Numbered from the stretch's first letter, positions 2,948 to 28,239 are shown. The stretch is DNA of 32,000 bases from Pseudarthrobacter sp. P1 (GCF_050156935.1 NZ_CP189584.1:1195263-1227262), one strand, 5' to 3'. Program-made: numbers and translations. Notes: a model not told the origin generated them from the sequence alone.

Positions 2948-4589
2948 ATGACCACCGAGGCCCCGGCCCAACCCTCCTACACATCCGGCACGTCAACGGT
3001 CCCGCTGCTGGGCGAGACCATCGGGGAAAACCTGTCCCGGCTGGCCCTGCGGTTCGCCGACCGCGAGGCACTGGTGGATGTGCCGTCCGGGCGGCGCTGG
3101 ACCTATGCGGAACTGCGCCACGACGTCGGCGAGCTGGCCCGCGGCCTGCTGGCCGCCGGCGTCGGCAAGGGCGACCGGGTGGGCATCTGGGCACCCAACT
3201 GCCCCGAATGGGTGCTGGTGCAATACGCCACGGCCACGATCGGGGCCATCCTGGTCAACGTCAACCCGTCCTACCGCACCCATGAACTGACCCACGCCAT
3301 CACGCAATCGGGCCTGCGGATGATCATTGCCCTGCCCGGTTTCAAGACCACCGACTACCGCGGCATGCTCCAGGAGGCGGCCCCCAACTGCCCCGGGCTG
3401 TCGCGGATCGTCTACATCGGCACACCGGACTGGGACGCCCTGGTGGCCGGAGGCGCCGGGCTCCCCGCCACCGCCGTGCCGGAGGCGATGTCGAAGCTGA
3501 GCGCGGACGATCCCATCAACATCCAGTACACCTCCGGCACCACGGGTTTTCCCAAGGGCGCCACGCTGAGCCACCACAACATCCTCAACAACGGCTACTT
3601 CGTCACGGAGACCATCGGCTTCACCGAGGCGGACCGGCTCTGCGTCCCGGTGCCGTTCTACCACTGCGTCGGCATGGTCATGGGCAACCTCGGCGCCACC
3701 TCGCACGGCGCCGCGATCGTCATCCCGGCCCCCTCCTTCGACGCCGCGGCCACGCTGGCGGCCGTGCACGACCAGCGGTGCACGGCACTGTACGGCGTGC
3801 CCACCATGTTCATCGCCGAGCTGGCGCTGCCCGGCTTCTCCGGCTACGACCTCTCCAGCCTGCGCACCGGCATCATGGCCGGCTCCCCGTGCCCGGTGGA
3901 AATCATGAAGCGCATTCTGGCGGAGATGCACATGGGCGCCGTCTCCATCGCCTACGGCATGACGGAGACCTCCCCGGTGTCCATGCAGACCCAGCCCGAC
4001 GACGACGTCGACCACCGCACCGCGACGGTGGGCCGGGTGCACCCGCACCTGGAGGTCAAGATCGTGGATCCGGCCACCGGCCTGACGGTCCCGCGCGGGA
4101 TGCCGGGCGAATTCTGCACCCGCGGCTATTCGGGCATGCTGGGCTACTGGAACGATCCGGAGAAGACCGCCGCGGCCATCCGACGCGGCCCGCTGGATGC
4201 ACACCGGGGACCTGGCCGAAATGCGCGGCGACGGCTACGTCAACATTGTCGGCCGGATCAAGGACATGGTGATCCGCGGCGGGGAGAACCTGTATCCCCG
4301 GGAGATCGAGGAATTCCTATACGGCCACCCGGACGTGGCCGACGTCCAGGTGGTGGGCGTCCCGGACGCCACCTACGGCGAGGAACTGTGCGCCTGGCTG
4401 CGCATGCGGGAGGGCGCCACCCCGCTGGACCAGGCCGCCGTCGCCGCCTTCTGTGCCGGCAGGCTCTCCCGGCACAAGATCCCCCGCTACGTCCTGGTGG
4501 TGGACGAATTCCCGATGACCGTCACCGGCAAGGTGCGCAAGATGGACATGCGCGAACGCTCCATCGAACTGTTGGGCCTCACAGGATAG
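2948..4589 (+). pseudogene. AMP-binding acyl-CoA synthetase/ligase interrupted by a +1/-2 frameshift near 4181
   Basis: Frame 2 (2948-~4180) carries the adenylation motifs [20 protein letters not shown] and [13 protein letters not shown]. The conserved continuation (D)[44 protein letters not shown]...TVTGKVRK is in frame 0 (ORF 4197-4589). The frame-2 tail to 4645 is Arg/Pro/Gly junk. Confidence 0.75.
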
Positions 4590-4684
4590 CCATCCCTGCC
4601 GCAGGGAAAATCCGTAGCCAGCGCACCGGTTCTGCGCTTTACTGAAGTTGTCCCATTGCGGCCATCAGAGAGAGGTCGGCGACC

Positions 4685-5204: not shown

Positions 5205-5227
5205 GGGTGGAACGAGGTGGTACGCCG

Positions 5228-5557
5228 ATGCACGAACTCTCCATCACTCAAAGCTTGGTTGATGCGGTCCTTGACCGGACCGGTGATCGGCACGTGACCG
5301 GCGTGAACCTGCGGATCGGCCGTTTGAGTGGCGTCCTGCCGGATGCCGTCCGCTTCTGTTTTGAACTCGTCTCGGAGGGAACCCCGCTGGCCGGGGCGCA
5401 ACTGCGCATCGACGAGCCTCCCGGCCGGGTCCGGTGCCGAAGCTGCCGCCAGGAATCCGTCCTGCCGGACATGTTTGCGCTGTGCACCTGCGGCAGCGCC
5501 GACGTCGAAGTCACAGGCGGGAGGGAACTCATGCTCGCCTCGGTGGAAGTGGGATAG
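5228..5557 (+). CDS. hypA: Hydrogenase nickel-insertion protein HypA
   Basis: Begins with the MHELSI signature and contains a zinc-site CxxC...CxC (CRSCRQ...CTCGS). Start was set at MHEL rather than the upstream 5207. Confidence 0.9.
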   Translation: MHELSITQSLVDAVLDRTGDRHVTGVNLRIGRLSGVLPDAVRFCFELVSEGTPLAGAQLRIDEPPGRVRCRSCRQESVLPDMFALCTCGSADVEVTGGRELMLASVEVG

Positions 5558-5559
5558 CC

Positions 5560-6453
5560 ATGTGCAGCACGTGCGGTTGCGGCGACGACGGCGGGACGCG
5601 TGTGTCGACGCTGTTGGGAACCCCCGTGGTCCACGACCATGGGCACGCTGCCGGCGCGGACCATGTCCACGACCACCCGCACGACGGCGGCCACGACCAC
5701 GGGCACGACCATCCGCACACGCATGCGGGCCCGGCGGAGGACGGCCACGGCACCCCGGCCACCATCACCCTCGAGCAGAAGGTGCTGGCCAAAAACGATT
5801 TGTTGGCCGCTAGGAACCGCGGCTGGCTGGAGGGCCGGGGCATCCGGGCGCTGAATGTGATGAGCTCCCCCGGCGCCGGCAAAACCACCCTGTTGGTCCG
5901 CACCATCAGGGACCTCGGCGACCGGCTGACAATCGGCGTGGTCGAAGGGGACCAGGAAACCTCGCTGGACGCAGACCGGATCCGCGCCACCGGACGGAAG
6001 GTCATCCAGATCAACACCGGATCCGGGTGCCATCTGGATGCCGACATGCTCCAGCGCGGCCTCACAGCCCTCGACCCGGAGATGGGGTCGACGGTATTCA
6101 TCGAAAACGTCGGCAACCTGGTCTGCCCGGCGCTCTTTGACTTGGGGGAAGCGGCAAAAGTGGTAGTAATTTCCGTTCCGGAGGGCGACGATAAACCGCA
6201 AAAATATCCCCATATGTTCATGGCGGCGGATCTGGTGATTGTCAACAAATCGGATCTGCTCCCGTACGTTGAATTCGACGTGGAGAAGTGCCGCCGCCAG
6301 GCGCGGCGGTTGAATCCCGGCGTCGAGTTCCTCACCGTTTCGGCCACCACCGGCGAAGGCCTGGCTGGCTGGTACGACTGGATTCTGAAGGATCCTGGAT
6401 CGTCAACGGCGCATGGGGCCGCCACAACGCAACCACTGCGCGTCCGTGCCTGA
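5560..6453 (+). CDS. hypB: Hydrogenase nickel-incorporation GTPase HypB with His-rich N-terminal stretch
   Basis: N-terminal MCSTCGCG metal motif, His-rich run HDHGHAAGADHVHDHPHDGGHDHGHDHPHTH, P-loop SPGAGKTTLL, and ENVGNLVCP and NKSDL GTPase motifs. The ATG lies 3 nt after the hypA stop. Confidence 0.9.
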   Translation: MCSTCGCGDDGGTRVSTLLGTPVVHDHGHAAGADHVHDHPHDGGHDHGHDHPHTHAGPAEDGHGTPATITLEQKVLAKNDLLAARNRGWLEGRGIRALNVMSSPGAGKTTLLVRTIRDLGDRLTIGVVEGDQETSLDADRIRATGRKVIQINTGSGCHLDADMLQRGLTALDPEMGSTVFIENVGNLVCPALFDLGEAAKVVVISVPEGDDKPQKYPHMFMAADLVIVNKSDLLPYVEFDVEKCRRQARRLNPGVEFLTVSATTGEGLAGWYDWILKDPGSSTAHGAATTQPLRVRA

Positions 6454-6512
6454 GGTCCAGGCCAGCGCATAACGAGCCCGCGCTCCAGCCAGCGGGGCTC
6501 TCGAAGGAGGCA

Positions 6513-7574
6513 ATGATGCCTACAGCAGCTGCGATCAAAGCCGAAGAGACCCTCATCCATGTTTTGTGGATCAATGCCGGACTCAGTTGCGACGGTGACT
6601 CGGTCGCCCTGACGGCGGCAACGCAGCCCAGCGTTGAGGAGATCGCGTTGGGTGCACTGCCCGGTCTGCCGAAGATCGCGATGCACTGGCCGCTGATTGA
6701 TTTTGAATGCGGCCCGCAGGAAGGCGCCGATGATTTCCTCGAGTGGTTCCGCAAGGCGGACCGCGGGGAACTCGAGCCGTTTGTCCTGGTAGTTGAAGGA
6801 TCCATCCCCAACGAAAAGCTCCATGCCGAAGGCGGCTATTGGTCCGGATTCGGCAACAACCTGGAAACCGGCCAGCCCATCACCACCAGCGAATGGCTGG
6901 ACAAGCTGGCACCGAAAGCCACGGCCATCATCGCCGCCGGCACCTGCGCCGCCTACGGCGGCATCCATGCGATGGCGGGAAACCCCACCGGTGCCATGGG
7001 CGTCCCGGACTACCTCGGCTATGACTGGAAGTCCAAGGCGGGCATCCCCATTGTCTGCGTGCCCGGTTGCCCGATCCAGCCCGACAACCTCTCCGAAACC
7101 ATCACCTATCTGCTGTACCTGGCCACTGGCCAGGCACCGATGATCCCCCTGGACGAATCGCTGCGGCCCACCTGGCTGTTCGGACGGACGGTGCATGAAG
7201 GATGCGACCGTGCGGGCTACTACGAACAGGGCGACTTCGCCACCGAATACGGCTCACCCAAGTGCATTGTGAAGCTGGGCTGCTGGGGTCCGGTGGTCAA
7301 GTGCAATGTCCCCAAGCGGGGCTGGATGAACGGCATCGGCGGCTGCCCCAACGTTGGTGGCATCTGCATCGGCTGCACCATGCCGGGCTTCCCCGACAAG
7401 TTCATGCCCTTCATGGACGAACCTCCCGGCGGCATTCTGTCCACGAACGCCGTCAAGCCCTACGGCGCGGCGGTGCGGGCCCTGCGGCACATCACCATGA
7501 ACACACTGGACAAGGAACCGCGCTGGCGCAAGAACGGCCACGAACTGCTCACAGGCGCCATCCGCACCTGGTAG
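6513..7574 (+). CDS. hhyS: [NiFe]-hydrogenase small subunit, group 1h/5 (no Tat signal)
   Basis: Starts directly at the conserved core (LIHVLWINAGLSCDGDS) after RBS GAAGGAGG. Fe-S ligand Cys patterns are GTCAAYGG, CVPGCP, and HEGC...KCIVKLGCWGPVVKCNV...GGCPNVGGICIGC. Confidence 0.9.
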   Translation: MMPTAAAIKAEETLIHVLWINAGLSCDGDSVALTAATQPSVEEIALGALPGLPKIAMHWPLIDFECGPQEGADDFLEWFRKADRGELEPFVLVVEGSIPNEKLHAEGGYWSGFGNNLETGQPITTSEWLDKLAPKATAIIAAGTCAAYGGIHAMAGNPTGAMGVPDYLGYDWKSKAGIPIVCVPGCPIQPDNLSETITYLLYLATGQAPMIPLDESLRPTWLFGRTVHEGCDRAGYYEQGDFATEYGSPKCIVKLGCWGPVVKCNVPKRGWMNGIGGCPNVGGICIGCTMPGFPDKFMPFMDEPPGGILSTNAVKPYGAAVRALRHITMNTLDKEPRWRKNGHELLTGAIRTW

Positions 7575-7616
7575 TCCTTCCGACCCGGCAATCGCCACAA
7601 GAAGAGAGGCGAGGCA

Positions 7617-9410
7617 ATGACCTCGACGATTCCATCACACAACCAAGGCGGCGCCAACGGCAACGAGCTGGTGGAGATGGCGTGGGATCCCATCACCAGG
7701 ATCGTGGGCAGCCTCGGCATCTACACCAAAATCGACTTCGCCAACCGTGAAGTGGTGGAATGCCACAGCACGTCGTCGATTTTCCGCGGCTATTCCATCT
7801 TCATGCGCGGGAAGGACCCCCGGGACGCCCACTTCATCACCAGCCGGATCTGCGGAATCTGCGGCGACAACCACGCCACGTGCTCCTGTTATGCCCAGAA
7901 CATGGCCTACGGGGTCAAGCCGCCGCACCTTGGCGAGTGGATCGTGAATTTGGGCGAGGCCGCCGAGTACATGTTTGACCACAACATCTTCCAAGAGAAT
8001 CTGGTGGGTGTGGACTACTGCGAAAGGATGGTCGCGGAGACCAACCCCGGGGTCCTGGCCAAGGCGGAGAACACCCGCGCCCCGCATGAGGGCGACCACG
8101 GCTACCGGACCATCGCGGACATCATGCGCTCACTCAACCCTTTCACCGGGGAGTTCTACCGCGAAGCTCTGCAGGTCAGCAGGCTCACCCGTGAAATGTT
8201 CTGCCTGATGGAGGGGCGCCACGTGCACCCCTCCACGCTCTACCCCGGCGGCGTGGGCACGGTGGCCACCATCCAGCTCATGACCGACTACATCACCCGG
8301 TTGATGCGCTATGTCGAGTTCATGAAGAAGGTCGTGCCGATGCATGATGACCTCTTCGACTTCTTCTACGACGCACTGCCGGGGTACGAGCAGGTGGGCC
8401 TGCGGCGCACCCTGCTCGGATGCTGGGGCTCGTTCCAGGATCCGGATTTCTGCAACTTTGCGTACAAGGACATGACGGAGTGGGGACGGAAAATGTTCGT
8501 CACCCCCGGCGTCGTCGTCGATGGGAAACTGGTAACCACGGACCTGGTGCGGATCAACCTCGGCATCCGGATCATGCTCGGCTCCTCCTACTACGAGGAC
8601 TGGGGCGACCAGGAAATGTTCGTCACGCACGACCCGCTGGGAAATCCCGTGGACCGGCGCCACCCCTGGAACCAGCACACCAACCCCAAGCCGCAGCGGC
8701 GGGACCTCGACGACAAGTACAGCTGGGTGATGTCGCCGCGCTGGAATGACGGCCAGGACAATCTGGCACTGGACACCGGGGGCGGGCCCCTGGCCCGGCT
8801 GTGGTCCACGGCGCTGGCGGGGTTGGTGGACATCGGCTACATCAAGTCCACCGGACACAGCGTGGAGATCAACCTTCCCAAGACCGCGCTCAAGGGCCCG
8901 GTGTCGATGGAATGGAAGATTCCGCAGTGGAGCAACACGCTGGAACGCAACCGCGCCCGGACCTACTTCCAGGCGTACGCCGCGGCCGCGGCCCTGCACT
9001 TCGCGGAGAAGGCGCTGGAGGAAATCCGCGCCGGGCGGACCAAGACCTGGGAGTCGTTCGAGGTCCCGGATGAGGCCGTGAGCTGCGGATTCACCGAGGC
9101 CGTCCGCGGCGTCCTGTCGCACCACATGGTGATCCGCGACGGCAAGATTGCGAACTACCACCCCTACCCGCCCACCCCATGGAACGCCAGCCCGCGCGAC
9201 GCCTCCGGCACGCCGGGACCCTACGAGGACGCCGTCCAGGGCCAGCCCATCTTTGAGGAGAACGACCGGGAGCATTTCAAGGGCATCGACATCATGCGCA
9301 CGGTGCGCAGTTTCGATCCGTGCCTGCCCTGCGGCGTGCACATGTACCTAGGTGACGGCAAGAGCCTGGACGTCCTGCACTCCCCGACGCAGTCGCTCAC
9401 CGGCGAGTAG
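7617..9410 (+). CDS. hhyL: [NiFe]-hydrogenase large subunit, group 1h/5 (high-affinity Hhy type)
   Basis: N-terminal Ni-Fe motif TSRICGICGDNHATCS and C-terminal motif SFDPCLPCGVH, followed by a 22-aa extension (MYLGDG...) that would be the endopeptidase substrate. These two signatures match those recalled for group 5/1h enzymes. Confidence 0.93.
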   Translation: MTSTIPSHNQGGANGNELVEMAWDPITRIVGSLGIYTKIDFANREVVECHSTSSIFRGYSIFMRGKDPRDAHFITSRICGICGDNHATCSCYAQNMAYGVKPPHLGEWIVNLGEAAEYMFDHNIFQENLVGVDYCERMVAETNPGVLAKAENTRAPHEGDHGYRTIADIMRSLNPFTGEFYREALQVSRLTREMFCLMEGRHVHPSTLYPGGVGTVATIQLMTDYITRLMRYVEFMKKVVPMHDDLFDFFYDALPGYEQVGLRRTLLGCWGSFQDPDFCNFAYKDMTEWGRKMFVTPGVVVDGKLVTTDLVRINLGIRIMLGSSYYEDWGDQEMFVTHDPLGNPVDRRHPWNQHTNPKPQRRDLDDKYSWVMSPRWNDGQDNLALDTGGGPLARLWSTALAGLVDIGYIKSTGHSVEINLPKTALKGPVSMEWKIPQWSNTLERNRARTYFQAYAAAAALHFAEKALEEIRAGRTKTWESFEVPDEAVSCGFTEAVRGVLSHHMVIRDGKIANYHPYPPTPWNASPRDASGTPGPYEDAVQGQPIFEENDREHFKGIDIMRTVRSFDPCLPCGVHMYLGDGKSLDVLHSPTQSLTGE

Positions 9411-9416
9411 CCGGCC

Positions 9417-10421
9417 ATGATCGCGCACACCGGCCAGGCCGGTTCCAGTGTCCCGGCTGCGGCCACCGCAGCCGGACCCGGGGCTGCCCGGTCCGGCGGT
9501 GACCAGCTCCGGGTGGCCGGCGAGCGGATCGGTACCCTCCTGGACGGCCTGTCCTCCGGCGGGGCCGTGGCCCGGGACCGGGCCGAGGAGCTGGTGCGCC
9601 AGGTGACGGATCTGTACGGCGCGGGGCTGGAGCGCATCCTGGACCTGCTCTCCGCCCGGGGGCTGCTCGACGGCGGCACCCTGGACGCCTTGCTGTCCGA
9701 TGAATTGGTCTCCGGCCTGCTGCTGGTCAACGGCCTGCATCCCCACGATGTGGCCACCCGGGTTGCCGCCGCCCTGGACAGCGTGCGGCCGTACCTGGGT
9801 TCGCACGGCGGCGATGTCGAGCTGTTGGGGATCAGCGACGACGGCGTGGTGCGGCTGCGGCTGCTGGGCAGCTGCCATGGCTGCCCGTCGTCGTCGGTCA
9901 CGTTGAAATTGGCCGTGGAAGACGCCATCGAAACCGCGGCGCCCGAAGTCACAGCCATTGAGGTGGCCGAGGAAGAGCCGGCCGGCGCCGGCGGCGCCGT
10001 CATTCCGATCAATGCGCTGCGGATGCGGCTGGACCAACAGGCCGCGGAGTCCTTCGCCGGCGCCGTTGGCGGCCAGTGGGAGCCTGCGGCGGAGCTGGGC
10101 GGGCTGGCGGACGGCGAAGTGGCGGGCTTCCTGATCGCCGGCACAGCCGTGCTTGCCTGCCGCCTCGGCGAAGACATTTTCGCCTACCGGGACTACTGTC
10201 CGCGCTGCACCAAGTCCTTGACCGGCGCCTCGCTGCAGCGTGCCCTGGCGTCCCCTACCGGCGGGGCCCTGCTGCGCTGCCCCACCTGCCGCGGCCACTT
10301 TGATGTCCGGAAGGCCGGTGCCTGCCTCGAGGACAAGGCCCAGCATCTGGAGCCGCTGCCGCTGCTGGTGCGCGGCGGCGTGACCTCCGTGGCCATTCCC
10401 GCCACCGCCGGGCACATGTGA
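9417..10421 (+). CDS. NifU-domain / Rieske-like (Cys4) iron-sulfur protein associated with Hhy hydrogenases (HhyE-like)
   Basis: The central region LDSVRPYLGSHGGDVELLGI...LLGSCHGCPSSSVTLK is a NifU C-terminal-type domain. The C-terminus has CPRC...CPTCRGHFD in a Rieske-like arrangement, with Cys replacing the His ligands. Confidence 0.75.
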   Translation: MIAHTGQAGSSVPAAATAAGPGAARSGGDQLRVAGERIGTLLDGLSSGGAVARDRAEELVRQVTDLYGAGLERILDLLSARGLLDGGTLDALLSDELVSGLLLVNGLHPHDVATRVAAALDSVRPYLGSHGGDVELLGISDDGVVRLRLLGSCHGCPSSSVTLKLAVEDAIETAAPEVTAIEVAEEEPAGAGGAVIPINALRMRLDQQAAESFAGAVGGQWEPAAELGGLADGEVAGFLIAGTAVLACRLGEDIFAYRDYCPRCTKSLTGASLQRALASPTGGALLRCPTCRGHFDVRKAGACLEDKAQHLEPLPLLVRGGVTSVAIPATAGHM

Positions 10422-11197
10422 TGTCCATCGGCCAGGAGCGCAATGCCGGCACCATGGCGCCATGGGCCGCCGGCACTCCCCTCCAGAACGGTGCGGACGG
10501 CGGCACCGGCGCCACGGGATCGCCGCCGCTGGCCCTGCTTCGGCGCATCGCGGGCAGCCGCCCCGCTGCGGCTGCCGGCGAGCGCTGTGAGATGTGTGCC
10601 GAACCCCTGGCCGAGAAGCACCAGCATGTGGTGGACACGGAAAGCCGCGCGCTCCTGTGCACCTGCCGCCCGTGCTACCTGCTGTTCACGGACTCGGGGG
10701 CGACTCTGCGTTACCGGTCCGTACCCGAACGGTATGTCTCCTTCCCTGGCTTTGAGCTGGGCGCCGGCCAATGGGACGAGCTGGAGATCCCGATTGGCTT
10801 GGCCTTCTTTTTCTTCAACACCGGGATGGGGCGCACTGTGGCGTTCTATCCGGGCCCTGCCGGGGCGACGGAGTCCGAGCTTCCCTTGGGTGCCTGGGAC
10901 GCGGTGCTGGCCGCCAATCCTGCCGTCTCCATCGCGGCCCCGGACACGGAGGCCCTCCTGATCCGCGCGCCGGGCCCCGAGCGGTTGGGTGCGGATTGCC
11001 ATCTGGTGCCCATCGACGCCTGCTACGAGCTGGTGGGCCGGCTGCGCAAGGTGTGGCGGGGGTTTGACGGCGGCCAGGACGCCAGGGAGGCATTGTCCGG
11101 TTTCTTTGACCACGTGGTCCGCAGCAGCAAGCCTGCTCCCGCGATGGTCTCCCCCGGGGCCCGGCCGGTGGAGGGGGGCAGCGATGGCCCAGCTTGA
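10418..11197 (+). CDS. Conserved hypothetical protein, hydrogenase-linked, Cys-cluster (CxxC...CxCxxC)
   Basis: High GC3. The start overlaps the upstream stop (ATGTGATG). Contains RCEMCAEPL...LLCTCRPCYLLF. I recall homologues as a DUF family in actinobacterial hhy loci; this is unverified. Confidence 0.7.
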   Translation: MMSIGQERNAGTMAPWAAGTPLQNGADGGTGATGSPPLALLRRIAGSRPAAAAGERCEMCAEPLAEKHQHVVDTESRALLCTCRPCYLLFTDSGATLRYRSVPERYVSFPGFELGAGQWDELEIPIGLAFFFFNTGMGRTVAFYPGPAGATESELPLGAWDAVLAANPAVSIAAPDTEALLIRAPGPERLGADCHLVPIDACYELVGRLRKVWRGFDGGQDAREALSGFFDHVVRSSKPAPAMVSPGARPVEGGSDGPA

Positions 11198-11825
11198 GTT
11201 CAGCGTTCTGGACATCATTGCGGAGCCCTTTGCCGCGGCCCCGCAGCTCACGGCCCGGCTCCGCGTCACCGAGTCGACGGGTGCCGTCATCCACGCGATG
11301 GCCCTGCGCTGCCAGGTCCGGATCCAGCCGCAGCGCCGTGGCTACACGCCGGCGGAAGAGGAGGGGCTGCTGGACCTCTTTGGCGCCCGGCTCCGTTGGC
11401 CGTCCACGCTGAAGCCCTTCCTGTGGATGCAGTGCTCCACCCTGGTCCAGGGCTTCACCGGCGAGACCGAGGCCGACCTCCCGCTCCCCTGCACCTATGA
11501 CTTTGACGTCGCGGCCGCCAAATACCTGCATGCACTCCGCGAGCGCAGCATCCCGGTGGAATTCCTCTTCTCCGGCACCGTCTTCACCCAGGGCCTGGCC
11601 GGCTTTGGCGTCGAACAGGTGCCGTGGGACCGTGAAGCCTCCTTCCAGCTGCCGGTGGCAACCTGGACGGGGCTCATGGAGCAGCACTTCCCGCACTCCG
11701 GCTGGATCCGGGTGGACAAGGATGTTCTGGCCGCCCTGGCACACTACAAATCGGCGCTCGGGCTGACCTCCTGGGAAGCGGCCATCGAAGGCCTGCTCGC
11801 CGGAGCTGGTGACCCGGCGCAATGA
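11184..11825 (+). CDS. Conserved hypothetical protein, hydrogenase-linked
   Basis: ATG 11184 (MAQLEFSVLD...) overlaps the upstream gene by 14 nt. Codon bias is host-like. No known motif was found. Confidence 0.65.
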   Translation: MAQLEFSVLDIIAEPFAAAPQLTARLRVTESTGAVIHAMALRCQVRIQPQRRGYTPAEEEGLLDLFGARLRWPSTLKPFLWMQCSTLVQGFTGETEADLPLPCTYDFDVAAAKYLHALRERSIPVEFLFSGTVFTQGLAGFGVEQVPWDREASFQLPVATWTGLMEQHFPHSGWIRVDKDVLAALAHYKSALGLTSWEAAIEGLLAGAGDPAQ

Positions 11826-13282
11826 GGAGTCCAAGCCTGAGCCTGGCACGGGCCATTGCCGACGCCGTGCTCTACGAGGGCTACCTGCTCTACCCCTACC
11901 GGGCGTCGTCGCAGAAGAACCAGGCCCGCTGGCAGTTCGGCATTCTTGGCCCGCCGGGGGCCGCGGAGTCCGGGGCCGGCGAGGAATCCGGCCTGTTCGC
12001 CGATGCCCTGTTGCGTGCCGGTCCGCTGGCCGAAGTGGCGGTCCACCTGCGTTTCCTGCAATTGCAGACGCGCACCGTGGAGCGGGCGGACGCGACGGGG
12101 TTCATCCCCGTGCCCGAGCTGTCCGCTGGCTCCGCCCGCTGGCTGACCTGGGATGAAGCGATCGAGCATGAGGTGCCGCTGGGCCCGTTCAGCTTGGCCC
12201 AGCTCCGGGAGGGGCCATCGGTGGCCGTCGAGATCCCCGACGGGGAGGATGCCGAGCTGCTTCGTGACCCCTCGGGATCCGCCGTGGGGCGGCTGGTGCG
12301 CCGGCGCAGGGCATTGCGGGCCACGGTCACGCTCACCATGGACAGCGCGGGCACTGATTACACGGGGGCGGATCAAGCGGGGGCGGCGGGCGCCGGGGAT
12401 GCACCCCTGCTGCGGCTGCGTGTGGCCGTGGACAACACGGCCGCCGGGCAGACGCGGGACAAGCACGATGCCATCGCCCAATCGTTCATCGGCACGCACG
12501 TGCTGCTCAGCCTTGTCGACGGTGACTTCATCTCGCTGCTGGATCCCCCGGATGGGGCCCGGGCTGCTGCCCAGGCATGCACCCAGCACCGTGGCTGGCC
12601 CGTCCTCGCCGGACCGCCCGGCCAAAGCGACGTCCTGCTCATCTCCCCCATCATTCTCTACGACCACCCCGCGGTGGCCCCGGAAAGTTCGGTGGCCCTC
12701 TACGATTCCACCGAAATCGACGAGATCCTCACGCTGCGGGTGCTCACGCTGACCGAGGAGGAAAAGGCCGAAGCCCGTGCCACCGATCCGCGTGCCGCCG
12801 AGATCATCGACCGCTGCGAGGCCATGACCGAGACCGAGCTCCAGGCCCTGCACGGCATCCTGCGCAACCCGCATGCCGGCGAGGACCTCGGCAGCCAGGC
12901 CACCGCCCCGCCCTTTGAGGTGCTGGCGGAGGAACCGCCGGCGGGAACACCCTGGTGGGATCCGGCCGCGGATTCGTCCGTCCGGCCGGAGTCCGACGTC
13001 GTGGTGATCAAGGGGGTGCCGGTGGCACGGGGCAGCCGGGTGGTTGTCATGCCGAGCAGGCGGGCGGATGCCCAGGATCTGTTCTCCGCCGGGCAGCCGG
13101 CCCGCGTCACGGGCGTCCACTTTGACGTCGACGGCAGCACCCATGTCGCCGTCGTCATAGAAGCCGACCCCGCGGCGGAACTCCAGGAATGGTACGGCCG
13201 GTACCTGTACTTCTCCCCGGAGGAACTGGAGCCCCTCGATCCACTGCCGGCCGCAGACGACGGAAGGAAAGGCCCACAATGA
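11822..13282 (+). CDS. Conserved hypothetical protein (486 aa), hydrogenase-linked
   Basis: ATGA start/stop overlap at 11822-11825. Codon bias is host-like. The N-terminal motif is LYEGYLLYPYR...RWQFG. No known catalytic motif was found. Confidence 0.7.
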   Translation: MRSPSLSLARAIADAVLYEGYLLYPYRASSQKNQARWQFGILGPPGAAESGAGEESGLFADALLRAGPLAEVAVHLRFLQLQTRTVERADATGFIPVPELSAGSARWLTWDEAIEHEVPLGPFSLAQLREGPSVAVEIPDGEDAELLRDPSGSAVGRLVRRRRALRATVTLTMDSAGTDYTGADQAGAAGAGDAPLLRLRVAVDNTAAGQTRDKHDAIAQSFIGTHVLLSLVDGDFISLLDPPDGARAAAQACTQHRGWPVLAGPPGQSDVLLISPIILYDHPAVAPESSVALYDSTEIDEILTLRVLTLTEEEKAEARATDPRAAEIIDRCEAMTETELQALHGILRNPHAGEDLGSQATAPPFEVLAEEPPAGTPWWDPAADSSVRPESDVVVIKGVPVARGSRVVVMPSRRADAQDLFSAGQPARVTGVHFDVDGSTHVAVVIEADPAAELQEWYGRYLYFSPEELEPLDPLPAADDGRKGPQ

Positions 13283-13398
13283 GGACACTTGGCAAAATAT
13301 CCGCGGTGGGGCTGCTGGTGGTGGCCCTGGCCGGGGTGGTGGTTGCGTTGCGCTCCATCCCGGACATTGCCCGCTACCTGAGGATCAGCCGGATGTGA
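13279..13398 (+). CDS. 39-aa single-pass membrane micro-protein (MRTLGKISAVGLLVVALAGVVVALRSIPDIARYLRISRM)
   Basis: ATGA overlap with the upstream stop, and its own stop overlaps the GTG of the protease gene. It has one clear TM helix and a basic amphipathic tail. I recall similar small proteins annotated next to actinobacterial hydrogenase proteases; this is unverified. Confidence 0.55.
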   Translation: MRTLGKISAVGLLVVALAGVVVALRSIPDIARYLRISRM

Positions 13399-14087
13399 GC
13401 GGCACCCACCCCGGCACCCCGATGGCCGTCGGCACCACCCGCCCGCGGCAGCCGGCCGGCCGCGGCCCCGCGCCCGGTCCGGTGTCCGCGCCTGCCCGCA
13501 TTTTGGTGGCGGGGGTGGGCAACATCTTCCTCGGCGACGACGGGTTCGGGCCGGAGGTGGCCCGCCGGATCGCCGTCGGCACCGGTGTCGCCGGCACCGG
13601 TGCCGGGGGCGGCGCGGAACCCGGAGCCGATGGGGATCTCGGCCGCCGGGGTGTCCGGGTGGTGGACTATGGCATCCGCGGGATCCATTTGGCTTACGAC
13701 CTGCTGGCGGGCGTCGATGCGCTGATCCTGGTGGATGCCGTCCCGGCCGCACCCTTGGACACGACGAGCTCCGGGACGGGGAACAGGCCCGGGGATGTCC
13801 GCGTCTTCCAGGTCTCCGCCCAGGACCTTTCCGGCGGCAGCACCGGCGGCGGTCTCCCGCCCCTGGATCCGCACGGGATGGACCCGCTGACCGTGTTGGC
13901 CAGGCTCCAAACCCTCGGCGGAGAACTTCCCCTGACGTTTGTCGTGGGCTGCGTCCCCGAGACAACCGCCGAGGGGATCGGCCTGTCGGCGGCCGTCGCG
14001 GGAGCGGTACCCGAAGCCATCGAGACGATCATGGCCCTGGTGGCGGAACATGGCCCCGGGGCACGAAGGGACGAACCATGTGTCTAG
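13395..14087 (+). CDS. [NiFe]-hydrogenase maturation endopeptidase (HupD/HybD/HyaD family)
   Basis: Motifs ILVAGVGNIFLGDDGFG, VVDYG, ALILVDAV and DPHGM. The start is uncertain (GTG 13395 or ATG 13422). A Gly/Ala-rich insertion lies between the first two motifs. Confidence 0.85.
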   Translation: MSGTHPGTPMAVGTTRPRQPAGRGPAPGPVSAPARILVAGVGNIFLGDDGFGPEVARRIAVGTGVAGTGAGGGAEPGADGDLGRRGVRVVDYGIRGIHLAYDLLAGVDALILVDAVPAAPLDTTSSGTGNRPGDVRVFQVSAQDLSGGSTGGGLPPLDPHGMDPLTVLARLQTLGGELPLTFVVGCVPETTAEGIGLSAAVAGAVPEAIETIMALVAEHGPGARRDEPCV

Positions 14088-14329
14088 GAATACCCGGCCA
14101 GGTGGTCCGGATGCTCGATGGCTACGGCAATCAGCTGGCTCTGGTGGACGTTGCCGGCGTGGAACGGAAAATCAACATCGGGCTCCTGGACGAGGGGCCG
14201 CTGGAACCGGGCAGCTGGGTCCTGATCCACATGGGCTTCGCACTGGAGCGGGTGGACTCCGCCGGGGCCCAGCGGGCCATGAGCGGCCTGAAGATGATGG
14301 GCTCCGGGGAGGACAACGACGGCGCCTAG
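14078..14329 (+). CDS. hypC: Hydrogenase assembly chaperone HypC/HupF
   Basis: N-terminal MCLGIPG signature and the WVLIHMGFAL motif; 83 aa. Confidence 0.9.
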   Translation: MCLGIPGQVVRMLDGYGNQLALVDVAGVERKINIGLLDEGPLEPGSWVLIHMGFALERVDSAGAQRAMSGLKMMGSGEDNDGA

Positions 14330-15102
14330 CCGCGTTCCAGCGCGATGGCCGCCCCCCTATGCTCCACCCCGGTGTTGGCGATCTTCAGGTGCCTTTCCGT
14401 GAAGTGCCTGAGCCTGTGCAGCTGCCCGGCAGTGAGCTTGTCGCAGATCCAGTCCCAATGCAGCGATACGGCGTCGCCAACGGCAAGGCCTGAGACAAAG
14501 CCGGCTCCGGCGACAGCAAATTTTGCCGTCTCCAGAATGGGATCGGCCAGGTGCAGGGCCACTCCGTCCCACGCCAGGGGGCGGGAACGGACCACTGCCT
14601 CATCGCCCGCGATGGCCACCACCTCCCCCCACCTGATGCGGCACTGGTCCAGGACGTGCAGCGCTGTGGCAAACCGTCTGTCGTCCCGCAGCAGGCCCAG
14701 CCACGGGTAGACCTCGAAGACATGGAAGCTGTGGTGCGGTACGCCACCGGCCAGCACCCCCTCGACCAGGTGCGGGAATTGCATCCCGGTCCGGGCGCGG
14801 AAGCGGTCCTCCATTGAGTTCCCGATGTTGTTTGTACCCACCGCGTCCAGCAGCGGGCTGCCCACCCAATAGGCCTCCACCACCCGGTAGTCGAGCGGAT
14901 CGGGGATGCCCGTGGCGCCGGCAATCAGTTCAAGGTATGGCCAGGCGCCCGCAAATCCCTTGGCCAGCTCGCGCAATCCGGGATCGGTGACCCCCGTCTG
15001 GCCGTACTGGAACAGGGCATCGCTGTCCTCCGGCCCGCAACTGCCTCTGGCGTTGGGTGGATAGGCGTAGCGAACAAAGAGTTGGGCACCGTCGATAACC
15101 AT
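14326..15102 (-). CDS. Conserved hypothetical protein (258 aa), convergent with hypC
   Basis: Start set at MVIDGAQLFVRYAYPPN (ATG 15102-15100). Codon bias is host-like. Its stop shares the CTAG at 14326-14329 with the hypC stop. No family was assigned with certainty. Confidence 0.65.
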   Translation of the reverse strand: MVIDGAQLFVRYAYPPNARGSCGPEDSDALFQYGQTGVTDPGLRELAKGFAGAWPYLELIAGATGIPDPLDYRVVEAYWVGSPLLDAVGTNNIGNSMEDRFRARTGMQFPHLVEGVLAGGVPHHSFHVFEVYPWLGLLRDDRRFATALHVLDQCRIRWGEVVAIAGDEAVVRSRPLAWDGVALHLADPILETAKFAVAGAGFVSGLAVGDAVSLHWDWICDKLTAGQLHRLRHFTERHLKIANTGVEHRGAAIALERG

Positions 15103-15311
15103 GGTCCGGCCTCGTTCCGCAAAGGATATGTCGACGCTAGCACCGTGGCGTGGTTGCCACAAGGAATGCGCGGAGCATCGCCGGGCAGACCTTCCGGCCG
15201 TGGCGGCGGCCCTCCCGCAAGTCATTGACAGTGCTGGGATTCGGGCAGAAGCTGTGACCAATCGAAGAATTGAGTGGTCCGCCAGTCTTTGGCAACGAAG
15301 GAGCCCAGCCG

Positions 15312-16436
15312 ATGGCTAGTCCCGCTGTAAACCGGCGCGCCGTGCTCTCCATGATCCTCGCCGGCGGCGGAGCGGCAGCGCTTGCCGCATGCGGGCCGCC
15401 AAACGCCGGATCCCCACCGGCAACCGGCGGGCCCATCACCCTGACGGACCAGCGGGGCAAGACCCTCACGTTCGACAAACCGGTCATCCGCGTGGTGACC
15501 ATTCCCATGCCCAGCGCATCTCTGCTGGTGGCCGTTGACCAAGGGGCCGACCACTTGGCCGCCATGCACAACGCCTCCTGGGTCGCCATGCGCGACGGCA
15601 CCATGGGCCAAATGTTTCCGGCGGTGCTGGAGATCCCCCACGACATTGCCACCGATGACTTCACACCCAATGTGGAGAGCATCCGGGCGCTGAACCCGGA
15701 CGTTGTGGTGCAGTGGAGTGATTCCCGGCTCACGGAACCATTGGAGAACGCGGGCTTGAAAGTCATTGGACTGACCAATACCGGCCAGCAGCAGGACGTG
15801 GACGCATGGGCCGCCCTCTTCGCCACCATGCTGGGCAAGCCGGACCGTGCCGTGCAAATGAAGGCGCGCAGCGACGGGAAACTGAAGGCAATCCAGGCCC
15901 TGGCTGCCACCCGTGCGGCCGGCTCCAGCATCCTGTATATCAACCGGTTCACCGGCGGGCTGAAGGTCGCCGGCACCGGCAGCTACAACGATTTCTACAT
16001 CAAGCTGGTGGGCGGCAGCAATCCAGCCACGGGCCCCCACGGCGTCGCCGGCAAAGGCATGGTCGGGGTTGACGTGGAGCAGGTGCTCAGCTGGGACCCC
16101 GAAGTGATCCTGCTGGGCAATTTCGACAATGCCCTGCCCAAGGACGTCTACTCTGACCCGGTGCTGGCGAGCACGTCGGCAGCGCGGAACAAACGGGTCT
16201 ACAAGGTCCCGCTGGGCGGCTACCGGTGGGATCCCCCCGGGCAGGAGTCCCCCCTCATGTGGCAGTGGCTCTTGGACATCAGTTTCCCGGTGCCGTCATC
16301 CAGCTTGCGAGCGACAATTCCGGAGTACTACGGGTTCCTCTACGGGCGCACACCAACCCCCGCAGAGATCGACACCATGCTGTGGCTGGATGCCAACGGT
16401 GGATCCGCAAACTACCAGCAGTTCCATGGCGCATGA
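15312..16436 (+). CDS. ABC transporter substrate-binding lipoprotein, iron-siderophore/cobalamin (FecB/BtuF, PBP type-8) class
   Basis: RBS GAAGGAG lies 8 nt before ATG 15312. The signal peptide has a lipobox (AAALAAC). The overall sequence resembles periplasmic-binding-protein-2 family members, and the gene is followed by FecCD and ATPase genes. Confidence 0.8.
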   Translation: MASPAVNRRAVLSMILAGGGAAALAACGPPNAGSPPATGGPITLTDQRGKTLTFDKPVIRVVTIPMPSASLLVAVDQGADHLAAMHNASWVAMRDGTMGQMFPAVLEIPHDIATDDFTPNVESIRALNPDVVVQWSDSRLTEPLENAGLKVIGLTNTGQQQDVDAWAALFATMLGKPDRAVQMKARSDGKLKAIQALAATRAAGSSILYINRFTGGLKVAGTGSYNDFYIKLVGGSNPATGPHGVAGKGMVGVDVEQVLSWDPEVILLGNFDNALPKDVYSDPVLASTSAARNKRVYKVPLGGYRWDPPGQESPLMWQWLLDISFPVPSSSLRATIPEYYGFLYGRTPTPAEIDTMLWLDANGGSANYQQFHGA

Positions 16437-17502
16437 GGTCGGGGAACGCCAGGCGCCCAGACTGAAACGGCCGGCCCAGCGGCCGTACCCCGGAGTGCTC
16501 CGTCCGATCGCCGGCACCGCCGCCCTGCTGTTGGCCGTGGTGCTGGTGTCGCTGGCCCTGGGCCGGTATTACGTCCCGTTCTGGCATGTCGTCCAGGCGC
16601 TGGCGTCCCACGTGGTGCCGCTGGGAACCCCGGTTCCCAGCGCCGAGGACAGTGTGGTGGTTCTGGTGCGGCTGCCCCGGATCATCCTTGCCCTGCTGGT
16701 CGGCGGCGGGCTCGCCGTCGGCGGGGCCGCGCTCCAGGCCATCTTCAGGAATCCGCTGGTGAGTCCGGAAATCATCGGTGTCTCAGCAGGTGCATCCTTT
16801 GGCGGCGCGCTGGCCCTGCTGCTCGGCGCCGGTTCCCTCGCACTGGTCGGTGGATCCTTTGTGTTCGGCCTGGCGGCCCTGTGCCTGCTCTTTCTCATTG
16901 CGTCGGGGCGCGGCGGCGCACCCATGCTGATGATCGTCCTGGGCGGCGTGGTGGTCGGATCCTTCTTCTCCGCGCTCGTCTCGCTGACCACCTACATCGC
17001 CGACCCGTTCACCACCCTGCCGGCCATCGTCTTCTGGCTGCTGGGCAGCGTGGCCGCCGCCAGCTACGCAAAGGTCCTGATCGCCGTCGTGCCCATCCTT
17101 GCCGGCACCGGCATCCTGCTGGCACTGCGCTGGCGCATCAACGTCCTTTCGCTCGGTGATGAAGACGCCGCCGCGCTGGGTCTGCGCCCGCGCACCCTGC
17201 GCTGGGTGGTGCTGGTCTCGGTCGCACTGATCGTGGCAGGGGCGGTGGCTGTCAGTGGCGTCATCAGCTGGGTGGGGCTGGTGATCCCCCATCTGGCCCG
17301 CATGTGGGTGGGGCCGGACCACCGGGTGCTGCTGCCGGTGTCCTTCCTGCTGGGCGGCGCCTACCTCATCGCCGTCGACACCATTGCCCGCACCGTGACG
17401 GCCGGTGAAATCCCGCTGGGCGTGCTCACCGCCCTGATCGGCGCACCCGTATTCTTCGCCCTGCTCCGGCACAACCGGGACAGGATCTGGGACAGTGCTT
17501 GA
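16426..17502 (+). CDS. ABC transporter permease, FecCD/BtuC family
   Basis: A polytopic membrane protein with FecCD-like motifs (RLPRIILALLVGGGLAVGGAALQAIFRNPLVSPEIIGVSAGA...). Overlaps the SBP gene by 11 nt. Confidence 0.85.
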   Translation: MAHEVGERQAPRLKRPAQRPYPGVLRPIAGTAALLLAVVLVSLALGRYYVPFWHVVQALASHVVPLGTPVPSAEDSVVVLVRLPRIILALLVGGGLAVGGAALQAIFRNPLVSPEIIGVSAGASFGGALALLLGAGSLALVGGSFVFGLAALCLLFLIASGRGGAPMLMIVLGGVVVGSFFSALVSLTTYIADPFTTLPAIVFWLLGSVAAASYAKVLIAVVPILAGTGILLALRWRINVLSLGDEDAAALGLRPRTLRWVVLVSVALIVAGAVAVSGVISWVGLVIPHLARMWVGPDHRVLLPVSFLLGGAYLIAVDTIARTVTAGEIPLGVLTALIGAPVFFALLRHNRDRIWDSA

Positions 17503-18250
17503 GCTCGCAGGCGTTGGCTTTGGCTATGGCGGGCCCGAGTGGGTATTCCGGAACGTGAGTTTCCGGGTTGCCGCGGGTTCGGCGACGGCTGTCCTCGGAC
17601 CCAACGGCAGTGGCAAAACCACCCTGATCCGCTGCGTCGCAGGTCTCCTGGACCCTGTCGAGGGGTCAGTCCACCGGGCGGACACCGTGGGCTACGTGCC
17701 ACAGGCGCACGGCAGCGCGTTCGCCTACCACGCGCTGGATATGGTGCTCATGGGCCGGGCCCGGCAGATCCGCGTATTCCGCTCCCCCGGCGCCGCCGAC
17801 CGGCTGGCCGCGATGTCCGCCATGGAACGGGTCGGCATCGGTGCCCTGGCGGACCGGCCGTTTCCCACGCTCAGCGGCGGTGAACAACAGCTGGTGCTCA
17901 TCGCCCGTGCCATTGCCGCCGAGTCCCCCATCCTGGTGCTGGACGAGCCCTCCACCGGCCTCGATCTGAAGAACCAGGTCCGCATCATGGCGCTGTTGCG
18001 TGACTTGATGCAGGACGGCATGGCGCTGCTGCTGAGCACCCACCATCCCGACCACGCCCTGTACCTTGCGGATTCGGTGGTGCTGATGGGGCGTGGCAGC
18101 GTTCAAACGGGGCGGACGGACACGCTGCTGACGGATGCGGCCCTCTCGGCGCTGTACGGCGTGGGCGTCAACACGATTTCTTACGACGACGGCGGAACGG
18201 CCCGCCGCGCCGTCGTTACCCGCTTCGACCAGCCCACAGACAGCAGCTGA
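17495..18250 (+). CDS. ABC transporter ATP-binding protein (FecE/FhuC-like)
   Basis: Walker A GPNGSGKTT, signature LSGGEQQ, Walker B ILVLDEP. GTG start overlaps the permease stop. Confidence 0.85.
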   Translation: MLELAGVGFGYGGPEWVFRNVSFRVAAGSATAVLGPNGSGKTTLIRCVAGLLDPVEGSVHRADTVGYVPQAHGSAFAYHALDMVLMGRARQIRVFRSPGAADRLAAMSAMERVGIGALADRPFPTLSGGEQQLVLIARAIAAESPILVLDEPSTGLDLKNQVRIMALLRDLMQDGMALLLSTHHPDHALYLADSVVLMGRGSVQTGRTDTLLTDAALSALYGVGVNTISYDDGGTARRAVVTRFDQPTDSS

Positions 18251-19456: not shown

Positions 19457-21225
<1,769 letters not shown>

Positions 21226-21241
21226 GGCTAGCTATGCACCC

Positions 21242-23362: not shown

Positions 23363-23382
23363 AGCAGCTTCCTTGCTCTGGG

Positions 23383-23880
23383 TTACAGCCGATTCTGTAA
23401 GCGTTGCGTCCAAAATATGTCCAATCCCTGGTGTACACGGTCAACGTCCTCGGACGTGCCCATGAGCTCAAAACGGTAAAGAAGGGGGACCTTGCACTTG
23501 GCGGCGATGATGTCGCCGGCCAGGCAGTAGGTTTCCCCGAAGTTCGTGTTTCCGGCGGCTATGACGCCGGCAATAAGGCTGCGGTTCTGCTCCACGTTGA
23601 GGAACTTGATGACCTGTTTGGGAACGGCCCCATGCCCGGTCTCCCCACCATAGGTGGGAAGGACCAGCACGAAGGGTTCCAAAGCCAACAGCGTGTCATC
23701 ACGGGTGAGCAGTGGCAGCCGGGCAGCATCCATCCCCAGCTTTTGGACAAAACGGTGGGTGTTGTCCGAGATGGAGGAGAAGTAGATGAGCCTGCTGCGG
23801 GTGGGGAGCAGACCGGCGACGGCGGCAGCTCCGGTTCCGGCGCTGGTGCCGTGCTGATGGATATCTGCAATGGCAGTCAT
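23383..23880 (-). CDS. nrdI: Flavodoxin-like RNR maturation protein NrdI
   Basis: [15 protein letters not shown] and [12 protein letters not shown] motifs. It sits between nrdH and nrdE. Confidence 0.88.
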
Positions 23881-23940
23881 TGGTATCGCTTCCCACGATG
23901 TGCCCGGTGGATGTGCTGGCCCGGGCGGCCGGCTCCGTGC

Positions 23941-24186
23941 CTAGGCGACGGAGGCGGCGGCCGCGACGGCCAGTTCTTCGATCTTGTCGGGACGGAACCC
24001 GGACCAGTGGTCCTGGTCGGTCACGACAACGGGGGCCTGCATGTAGCCGAGGGACCGCAGACGCTCCAGGGCCTCGGGGTCCTGGGAGATGTCCACGCTC
24101 TGGTACGTGATGCCCTTCTTGTCCAACGCCCGGTAAGTGGCGGTGCACTGGACGCACGCTGGCTTGGTGTAAACCGTAACGGTCAT
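23941..24186 (-). CDS. nrdH: Glutaredoxin-like protein NrdH
   Basis: 81 aa with the CVQC redox motif (VYTKPACVQCTATYRAL) and WSGFRPDKI. Confidence 0.9.
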   Translation of the reverse strand: MTVTVYTKPACVQCTATYRALDKKGITYQSVDISQDPEALERLRSLGYMQAPVVVTDQDHWSGFRPDKIEELAVAAAASVA

Positions 24187-25678: not shown

Positions 25679-25788
25679 CGACGCATCCACCCATGACGCA
25701 CAACTGCACTGGAGGACGCCGTTTCCCGCTGATGACATGACCACGCCGCCATCCTGAACGGGATCCGACGTCGGAGACCGCACAAACA

Positions 25789-25827
25789 AAACCGCCGCCG
25801 CTCCCGGAAGGGGAACGACGGCGGTTT
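25789..25827. terminator. Bidirectional intrinsic terminator (LysR gene / metE)
   Basis: AAACCGCCG (25789-25797) pairs with CGGCGGTTT (25819-25827), with an inner TCCC/GGGA stem. T-rich tracts follow on both strands (GGTTT on plus; TTTGTTTG on minus). Confidence 0.6.
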
Positions 25828-25866
25828 GGTTTCGGCAGGCTCAACCAGCCAGACCGGCGGGTCAGG

Positions 25867-28176: not shown

Positions 28177-28239
28177 GTTCTGTCCTTGTGTCTCGTGGTG
28201 CTCAAGTGTGAAGGGGTACTGCAAACGAATGGGGGTGTC

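Follow-up and report, generated by a model that had tools for sequence, protein, structure and literature searches.

Three conserved accessory genes of group 1h [NiFe]-hydrogenase operons: natural gene fusions suggest a possible role in enzyme assembly or maturation

The stretch of Pseudarthrobacter sp. P1 DNA analyzed here, 32,000 nucleotides long (GCF_050156935.1, NZ_CP189584.1:1195263-1227262; hereafter the window), contains an operon for a group 1h [NiFe]-hydrogenase, Hhy, in which three genes lie between the NifU-like gene hhyE and the part of the operon that encodes the maturation endopeptidase HupD. We call them A (10421..11197), B (11184..11825) and C (11822..13282); all are on the + strand. 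They encode cytoplasmic accessory proteins that are conserved and that occur only with hydrogenases of group 1h. The proposal made here, to which we give about even weight, is that they are 1h-specific assembly or maturation factors, A working with HhyE and B and C with HupD, and that they do not serve catalysis or electron transfer. The identity of the genes, their strict linkage to 1h hydrogenase genes, their conserved translational coupling, the fusions, the metal-type motif and the lack of the three proteins in solved structures are observed; a role in maturation, its division into two sub-modules and all of the biochemistry are what we infer.

Group 1h hydrogenases account for a large share of the biological sink of atmospheric H2, and they are wanted as O2-insensitive catalysts. 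The only genes of the operon without an assigned role are hhyE, A, B, C and a micro open reading frame (ORF) of the DUF6893 family. To know whether A, B and C act in maturation would decide which genes to co-express for a heterologous enzyme, and would narrow the search for the physiological acceptor. The three genes have been noted before, as conserved but without a known function; what is added here is the evidence from fusions, the lack of a likeness of A and C to solved structures, the invariant Cys5His2 site of A and the micro-ORF. An earlier note, made from the window alone, had presented them as the best candidate in the window for an undescribed functional module. That description goes too far: the same genes are in the literature as PHG067-069 of Cupriavidus necator and probably as hhaABC of Thermomicrobium roseum, and PHG067 has been discussed as an electron acceptor.

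Natural gene fusions

Ten long homologues of C (599-765 aa) were scanned against Pfam. A C-terminal protease domain of the HycI/HupD type is present in seven of the ten, and the fusions with protease make up at least seven clusters at 50% identity. One of the ten, 765 aa long, has instead an N-terminal DUF6084 domain, the family of B, and is a B-C fusion. The cluster of this fusion has 28 members, drawn from JGI, NCBI, ENA and Logan, and four of the C-protease clusters hold at least two full-length members of equal length, a recurrence across independent assemblies. Because they recur across sources and assemblies, neither the C-protease nor the B-C fusions are assembly artefacts. The protease that is fused to C is the sole protease of its gene cluster. 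Most of the proteins closest to the fused C domains are themselves unfused. To judge from nearest-neighbor identity and not from a tree, this suggests that the C-protease fusions arose several times independently.

Upstream of the gene for the B-C fusion there is, in that lineage, another fused gene. It encodes a 375-aa protein in which the N-terminal part of HhyE is joined to DUF5947, the family of A, and it was found in two independent assemblies with slightly different sequences. HhyE residues 56-135 align to it with 43% identity (E = 8e-12), and the CxxC of the NifU-like part is lost. The accessory region of this uncultured lineage consists of two genes, that of the 375-aa fusion (L081 158-1285; L082 3035-4162) and that of the 765-aa fusion (L081 1278-3575); a protease gene, DUF6893, a YceI-family gene, hypA, hypC and hypD follow. 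A 514-aa run-through from HhyE to DUF5947 in a long-read metagenome-assembled genome (L065, 7783-9327) was not counted as a fusion: the sequence at its junction diverges from the normal C-terminus of HhyE and looks frameshifted, and it is probably due to an indel. A profile match between HhyE and A (hhalign probability 99.9%) was discarded as an artefact of this single locus.

The fusions thus define the partner pairs HhyE and A, B and C, and C and HupD, each of which (C-HupD, B-C, A-HhyE) gives a pairwise testable hypothesis. C is physically or genetically coupled to a bona fide maturation enzyme through the HycI fusions, and the translational overlaps reach hupD and hypC. The fusion evidence favors assembly or maturation more than it favors a role as electron acceptor.

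In the mechanism that we propose, A would act through an invariant Cys5His2 site of the metal-binding type and would partner the NifU-like HhyE; their likely task would be to handle metal or iron-sulfur clusters destined for the small subunit. B and C would pair with the endopeptidase HupD on the precursor of the large subunit, and might hold or present this pre-HhyL around the time of nickel insertion and of the removal of its 22-residue tail. The pairing of C with HupD is most simply explained if both act on one substrate, pre-HhyL. One may go further and picture an assembly line that is dedicated to atmospheric-H2 hydrogenases and works in air, with HhyE-A as one half and B-C-HupD as the other. 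This would be a class of [NiFe] maturation factors in which C (with B) would present the substrate to the endopeptidase, A would be a new Cys5His2 handler, the folds would be unlike those already solved, and DUF6893 might tie the assembly or the enzyme to the membrane. This extended picture is tentative, and we think it somewhat doubtful.

Linkage to group 1h loci

Loci were collected around the best 80 of at least 593 relatives of C, from a scan with one genome per species. The order of genes is hypB, hhyS, hhyL, hhyE, A, B, C, (DUF6893), hupD, hypC, and it is complete from hypB to hypC in 64 of the 80. The other 16 are without some of the genes, and many of them end at a contig border. Every one of the 80 has B next to C. 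The overlap between B and C is 4 nt in 71 of 81 loci, and that between A and B is 4 or 8 nt in 53 of 71. The order is kept on plasmid pHG1 of C. necator (Betaproteobacteria) and on a plasmid of Methylocystis parvus (Alphaproteobacteria), with overlaps of 4-8 nt at most junctions; it is likewise kept in distant metagenomic relatives.

Plasmids provide a separate test of the linkage. Among 72,556 plasmids, 13 carry C, and the identical 13 carry a 1h-type HhyL (at least 72% identity); the sole plasmid with a distant hydrogenase (26% identity) is without C. On pHG1 there is one copy of C, located at the 1h cluster; the plasmid also encodes three other hydrogenases. The statement in the earlier note that homologues are specific to group 1h/5 loci is therefore well founded, with 80 genome loci and 13 of 13 plasmids behind it, and the homologues of A, B and C do carry only DUF or hypothetical labels, as it had said. 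One homologue of C, labelled 'Burkholderia sp. RS01' (P0048), is 65% identical to the C of the window, vs. 33% for PHG069, and is thus far nearer to the sequences from Micrococcaceae than PHG069 is; contamination or recent horizontal transfer may explain this similarity.

Reading frames, starts and overlaps

The G+C content of the window is 68%. Chance ORFs are common in such DNA, and the ORFs of the window that reach 80 aa or more number 137 in all. The genes A, B and C are real ones, because their G+C content at third codon positions is like that of their neighbors (0.83, 0.86 and 0.84, respectively, vs. 0.87-0.89 in hhyE and hhyL), because A and B match Pfam families, and because their homologues number in the thousands (6,710 for A, 3,298 for B and more than 7,990 for C). 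All three ORFs are present on the + strand at the coordinates given in the earlier note, and their composition had rightly been called host-like. The motifs picked out earlier, CEMC...CTCRPC in A and LYEGYLLYPYR...RWQFG in C, are genuine and are the best-conserved parts of each family. The statement that the proteins belong to no recognizable family applies to C, which has no match in Pfam or NCBIfam, but not to A (DUF5947) and B (DUF6084).

The sequences at the overlaps are also as first described: ATGTGATG at 10416-10423, ATGGCCCAGCTTGA (14 nt) at 11184-11197, and ATGA at 11822-11825, where B and C join, and at 13279-13282. Two of the starts have to be revised. For A, a GTG at 10418 had been taken as the start of a 259-aa protein; the most likely start is the ATG at 10421, which gives 258 aa as in the NCBI record (P0121), and the hhyE stop then overlaps the A start by 1 nt (TGATG). 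The ATGA at 13279 is present as stated, but it opens the 39-aa DUF6893 ORF (13279-13398), which had not been listed, and not the protease gene. The latter starts with GTG at 13395, so that the DUF6893 ORF overlaps C by ATGA and hupD by GTGA. The overlap between hupD and hypC is 10 nt. The chain of overlaps runs through hhyE, A, B, C, DUF6893, hupD and hypC, and coupling is thus not peculiar to A, B and C. To conclude from the overlaps that these genes are co-translated with the enzyme subunits is to over-read them; since the chain extends into the maturation genes hupD and hypC, a maturation role fits equally well.

Protein A and the case for electron transfer

A matches the DUF5947 hidden Markov model (HMM) with 236.8 bits (cut-off 25; E = 1.6e-70) over profile positions 1-175 of 177, and NCBI names an identical protein DUF5947 family. 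Between Actinobacteria and Proteobacteria, eight residues never vary: C56, C59, H67, H69, C80, C82, C85 and C201. All but C201 belong to the Cys5His2 pattern C-x2-C-x7-H-x-H-x10-C-x-C-x2-C, in which HxH sits between the halves of the Cys cluster. In the AlphaFold model of A, the predicted local distance difference test (pLDDT) is 78 overall, above 90 for the alpha/beta domain 100-235, and 50-68 for the region of the Cys/His motif. Folds were searched with Foldseek against the PDB, using the models of A and C. For A the search gave no PDB neighbor (best E = 0.14), and thus none that is ferredoxin- or rubredoxin-like, and Pfam gave no match to an iron-sulfur family.

The invariance of the Cys and His residues across phyla could also be put to the account of an electron-transfer module. 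Here A, possibly with HhyE, would bind an iron-sulfur cluster and link Hhy to the menaquinone pool, with B and C as adaptors. We think this unlikely. It draws on the lack of a cytochrome b or other known acceptor gene in 1h operons (Pfam, the 80 loci) and on the occurrence of the HhyE-A fusion. The hypothetical proteins of the 1h operon of Pyrinomonas were reportedly proposed as electron carriers by Greening et al. in 2015. PHG067 as electron acceptor is a proposal of Schaefer et al. (2013), as cited in PMC6883350; MSMEG_2717 of Mycobacterium smegmatis and PHG067 are discussed there as candidate acceptors, and Islam et al. leave the choice between electron transfer and maturation open (PMC6883350).

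Against electron transfer stands the fold of A, which has no known iron-sulfur carrier as a neighbor, and its motif, which is not that of a canonical ferredoxin, rubredoxin or Rieske protein. The CxxC of NifU is absent from the very fusion of HhyE with A that electron transfer would invoke. B and C have no cofactor motifs, and repeated fusion of C to a maturation protease would be odd for a respiratory adaptor. A, B and C do not appear to be stable subunits, as none of them matched a PDB chain by sequence, including those of 5AA5, the only solved 1h entry that HhyL matches. The C. necator enzyme of this entry was reportedly crystallized without the A, B and C proteins, which also counts against electron transfer. 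The related hydrogenase Huc is instructive in this regard: it reduces menaquinone analogues directly, without HucE, and the purified, menaquinone-reducing enzyme consists of HucL, HucS and HucM only (PMC10017518). HhyE is needed for Hhy activity in M. smegmatis, and HucE is likewise genetically required (PMC6883350). By analogy, a protein that is required yet absent from the purified enzyme, as HucE is, would support maturation.

Proteins B and C, DUF6893 and the case for a scaffold

B matches the DUF6084 HMM with 305.9 bits (cut-off 25; E = 1.7e-91) over positions 1-210 of 213. Neither B nor C has a Cys motif of the cofactor type, and C has no protease motifs. The family of C comprises 3,783 clusters at 50% identity (E <= 0.001). 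Its layout is a conserved N-terminal motif (LYEGYLLYPYR...RWQFG, invariant in the family), a beta-rich core, a segment SPIILYDHP...TEIDEILTLR, a helical region and a C-terminal SH3-like barrel. The model of C (pLDDT 74) is confident for the beta-rich core, 41-275, and for the small barrel, 390-475. By Foldseek, the barrel resembles SH3-like domains, among them the C-terminal one of the nitrile hydratase beta subunit and PetP, to which as target the template modelling (TM) score is 0.77. The top Foldseek match of C, a DrmA-like protein of DISARM (E = 1.4e-5), was rejected: its TM score is 0.22 and its root-mean-square deviation 22 A, PADLOC gave no match, and the context of C is hydrogenase only. 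As a whole, and to judge from the models, neither A nor C resembles a solved structure. Comparison of C with the HupD and HypC profiles by hhalign gave a probability of at most 0.1%, and the same program detected no homology between the C barrel and HypC, between the C core and B, or within any other pair of operon proteins.

The DUF6893 ORF encodes MRTLGKISAVGLLVVALAGVVVALRSIPDIARYLRISRM, one hydrophobic helix with a conserved basic tail, and scores 39.8 bits against its HMM (cut-off 24.6). At least 39 of 65 related loci encode such a peptide, with the conserved tail S(I/L)PDxxRYLKxRxM, and in distant lineages similar peptides sit 3' of the protease. Around the clusters of C. necator and Methylocystis, a simple pattern scan detected no ORF like DUF6893. 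Hydrophobic segments are absent from A, B and C, and the DUF6893 peptide is the only predicted membrane element of the operon.

This last feature is at the center of a second alternative, in which A, B, C and DUF6893 would be a structural or localization module that scaffolds the Hhy oligomer or tethers it to the membrane. We hold this to be quite unlikely. It has in its favor, besides the spread of DUF6893 among loci and distant lineages, the membrane association of Hhy-type enzymes, which have no transmembrane segment of their own (PMC7174314; PMC13332983), and the likeness of the C barrel to PetP, a small peripheral subunit of the cytochrome b6f complex. The missing DUF6893 near the C. necator cluster has been counted in the same sense, but this correlation is one case and comes from the pattern scan. 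A module made of proteins so devoid of hydrophobic segments is not an obvious tether, and a permanent scaffold is hard to square with the fusion of C to a protease that acts transiently.

Points against a maturation role

Several observations weigh against the proposed part of A, B and C in assembly or maturation, and some of them bear on the alternatives too. A gene fusion is a functional link, and the function itself is not specified by it. The Cys5His2 site of A could hold a redox-active cluster. Segments 14-44 and 276-305 of C are the most highly conserved and yet are poorly modelled; this is expected of partner-binding regions, but it could equally be explained by a shallow alignment. A, B and C are homologous to no known accessory family of the Hyp, Hup, Hox or Hya type, as judged by Pfam, NCBIfam and hhalign against HupD, HypC and HhyE, and the searchable literature yielded no mutant, structure or biochemical study of them. 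In native gels, HhyE, the putative partner of A, runs together with HhyL and HhyS (PMC6883350). In T. roseum, hhaABC are located in the structural operon and not in the separate maturation operon (PMC6776052), a position that suits electron transfer.

Finally, in the verrucomicrobium Methylacidiphilum fumariolicum SolV the genes hhyS, hhyL and hupD are directly adjacent and the 1h enzyme is active and of high affinity (PMC5364354; PMC7174314), and this strain reportedly lacks homologues of the hypothetical proteins of the operon (PMC7174314). As the SolV enzyme is active without them, A, B and C are not universally required. The same strain speaks against electron transfer through these proteins and, its enzyme being membrane-associated, against their serving as the scaffold.

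That some active 1h systems do without A, B and C, which are therefore dispensable there, would suit a third alternative, namely, that these proteins stabilize, reactivate or store the enzyme in dormancy or under O2 and are dispensable for its primary assembly. Such a role in protection, repair or regulation seems to us very unlikely. It would agree with the function of 1h enzymes in air and in dormant cells, and with co-induction under starvation in T. roseum, where the 'conserved hypothetical proteins hhaABC' directly 3' of hhyLS go up 5.5-fold together with hhyLS (PMC6776052). Against it, no regulatory or DNA-binding domains were detected in A, B or C with Pfam and NCBIfam, a time of action during biogenesis is indicated by the fusions to HupD and HhyE and by how tightly translation is coupled, and the idea has no direct evidence behind it.

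The hydrogenase genes of the window

The hydrogenase genes form a single chain on the + strand, from hypA to hypC (5207-14329). The first gene of the cluster in the window is hypA (5207..5557; Pfam HypA, E = 1.2e-29), for the nickel metallochaperone. It is followed by hypB (5560..6453, with its ATG start at 5560; Pfam cobW/HypB, E = 4e-25), for a GTPase with an MCSTCGCG motif at the N-terminus and a His-rich stretch. The small subunit gene, hhyS (6513..7574; Pfam Oxidored_q6 and NiFe_hyd_SSU_C), starts at ATGATG behind the Shine-Dalgarno sequence GAAGGAGG, and its product is 95% identical to the Arthrobacter homologue. The large subunit gene is hhyL (7617..9410; Pfam NiFeSe_Hases).

HhyL carries the L1 motif TSRICGICGDNH and the L2 motif SFDPCLPCGVH, which are verbatim the 1h/5 signatures of PMC5364354, and continues for 22 residues beyond the CLPCGVH motif. 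It is 78% identical to HofG of C. necator. In the PDB it strongly matches one chain only, HofG of 5AA5 (5aa5_C), and aligns with it no further than residue 575, the His of the motif. The HofG chain in this entry stops at the His of CxxCxxH, which shows that the mature enzyme has lost the C-terminal tail. On the strength of both motifs, the identity to HofG and the match to 5AA5, the operon is assigned to group 1h (also Hhy, group 5 or AH, for actinobacterial hydrogenase).

Downstream of hhyL, on the same strand, the hhyE-like gene (9417..10421; Pfam NifU, E = 2.4e-22) encodes a helical N-terminus, a NifU-like domain and, at the C-terminus, a domain that resembles Rieske proteins and has two CxxC motifs; the match to Rieske_2 (E = 3.4e-4) is under the Pfam cut-off. 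A, B and C come next, C being the orthologue of PHG069, and then the DUF6893 ORF (Pfam E = 4.5e-10). The hupD gene (13395..14087), for a HycI-type maturation endopeptidase of the large subunit, matches Pfam HycI and TIGR00072 (E = 5e-24). The coupled chain ends with hypC (hupF; 14078..14329; Pfam HupF_HypC, E = 1.4e-21), for a chaperone. No hypD, hypE or hypF is present in the window.

Other features of the window

Upstream of the hydrogenase genes, an acyl-CoA synthetase gene (2948-4645, +) seems to be frameshifted. The AMP-binding domain ends at about residue 401 of the 2948 frame, the rest of which is Arg/Pro/Gly-rich nonsense, and AMP-binding_C is found in another frame (ORF 4197-4589). 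Either the gene is a pseudogene, or sequencing introduced an indel. Directly after the hydrogenase chain and convergent with hypC is a DUF6390 gene (14326-15261, -; 311 aa, E = 3.7e-90). An ABC importer of the FecCD type (15270-18250, +), with periplasmic binding protein, permease and ATPase, lies directly 3' of the hydrogenase cluster and could supply metal or siderophore.

Further downstream is a class Ib ribonucleotide reductase operon (19457-24186, -), made up of nrdH (23941-24186), nrdI (23383-23880), nrdE (21242-23413) and nrdF (19457-20434). Between nrdE and nrdF there is a GIY-YIG/NUMOD3 homing-endonuclease-like gene (264 aa, 20431-21225), which overlaps the start of nrdF by 4 nt. The G+C content of the nrd stretch is 0.59-0.63, vs. 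about 0.69 elsewhere. An rRNA operon was considered for the low-G+C region at 19.4-24.3 kb and dismissed, as Rfam gave no match and the region is the nrdHIEF operon. Genes for a LysR regulator, MetE and MTHFR fall within 24746-29196, between the nrd operon and a transposase gene of the DDE type (insertion-sequence element; 30122-31696, -) near the end of the window.

Comparison with known systems

The AH (hofKG) cluster of C. necator H16 is like that of the window. Its orthologues are 33-47% identical, those of A and B belong to the same Pfam families, and the order is the same: small subunit, large subunit, NifU-like protein, A, B, C and protease, with overlaps of 4-8 nt. The annotation of pHG1 gives PHG066 as the NifU protein, PHG067 as A, PHG068 as B, PHG069 as C and PHG070 as the protease. 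A tblastn search of pHG1 with C found PHG069 between the DUF6084 gene and the protease gene (32.6% identity over 93% of the query, E = 2e-38); the two proteins share YEGYxLYPYR and SPIILYD...TEIDE. The clusters differ in that the HhyE of the window has an extra Rieske-like C-terminal domain, which PHG066 (192 aa) lacks, and in that the window has DUF6893 between C and the protease whereas pHG1 does not. PHG066-069 have been described as four ORFs of unknown function, of which PHG066 and PHG067 are strongly expressed (PMC4377017).

In M. smegmatis, MSMEG_2717-2715 correspond to A, B and C by synteny and by the account of Islam et al. (2019). The hhaABC genes of T. roseum are probably the same three, to go by their position alone. 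The name hha is ambiguous, as Mohammadi et al. apply it to hyp orthologues (PMC5364354).

The closest functional analogy is offered by the accessory set of the O2-tolerant, membrane-bound hydrogenases of group 1d (HoxL, HoxV, HoxO, HoxQ, HoxR and HoxT; HyaE/HyaF; HupG-K), which are operon-encoded, enzyme-specific supplements to the Hyp proteins for maturation in air. They are unlike A, B and C in sequence, since the latter have no Pfam or NCBIfam matches to families of the HupH, HyaE, rubredoxin or HypC type. Tat (twin-arginine translocation) signal peptides are not known from group 1h small subunits, so that a role like that of HoxO and HoxQ would have to differ. One member of the set, HoxR, is a Cys-rich protein of the rubredoxin type (according to Fritsch 2014, as cited in PMC6883350).

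HhyE/HucE is encoded directly upstream, is required for activity in M. smegmatis and may serve in electron relay or in maturation. It carries a NifU domain, whereas A, B and C have neither a NifU nor a Rieske domain, and one lineage fuses its N-terminus to A. HycI/HupD and HypC/HupF are the immediate downstream neighbors. C is homologous to neither of them, and yet HupD is its natural fusion partner.

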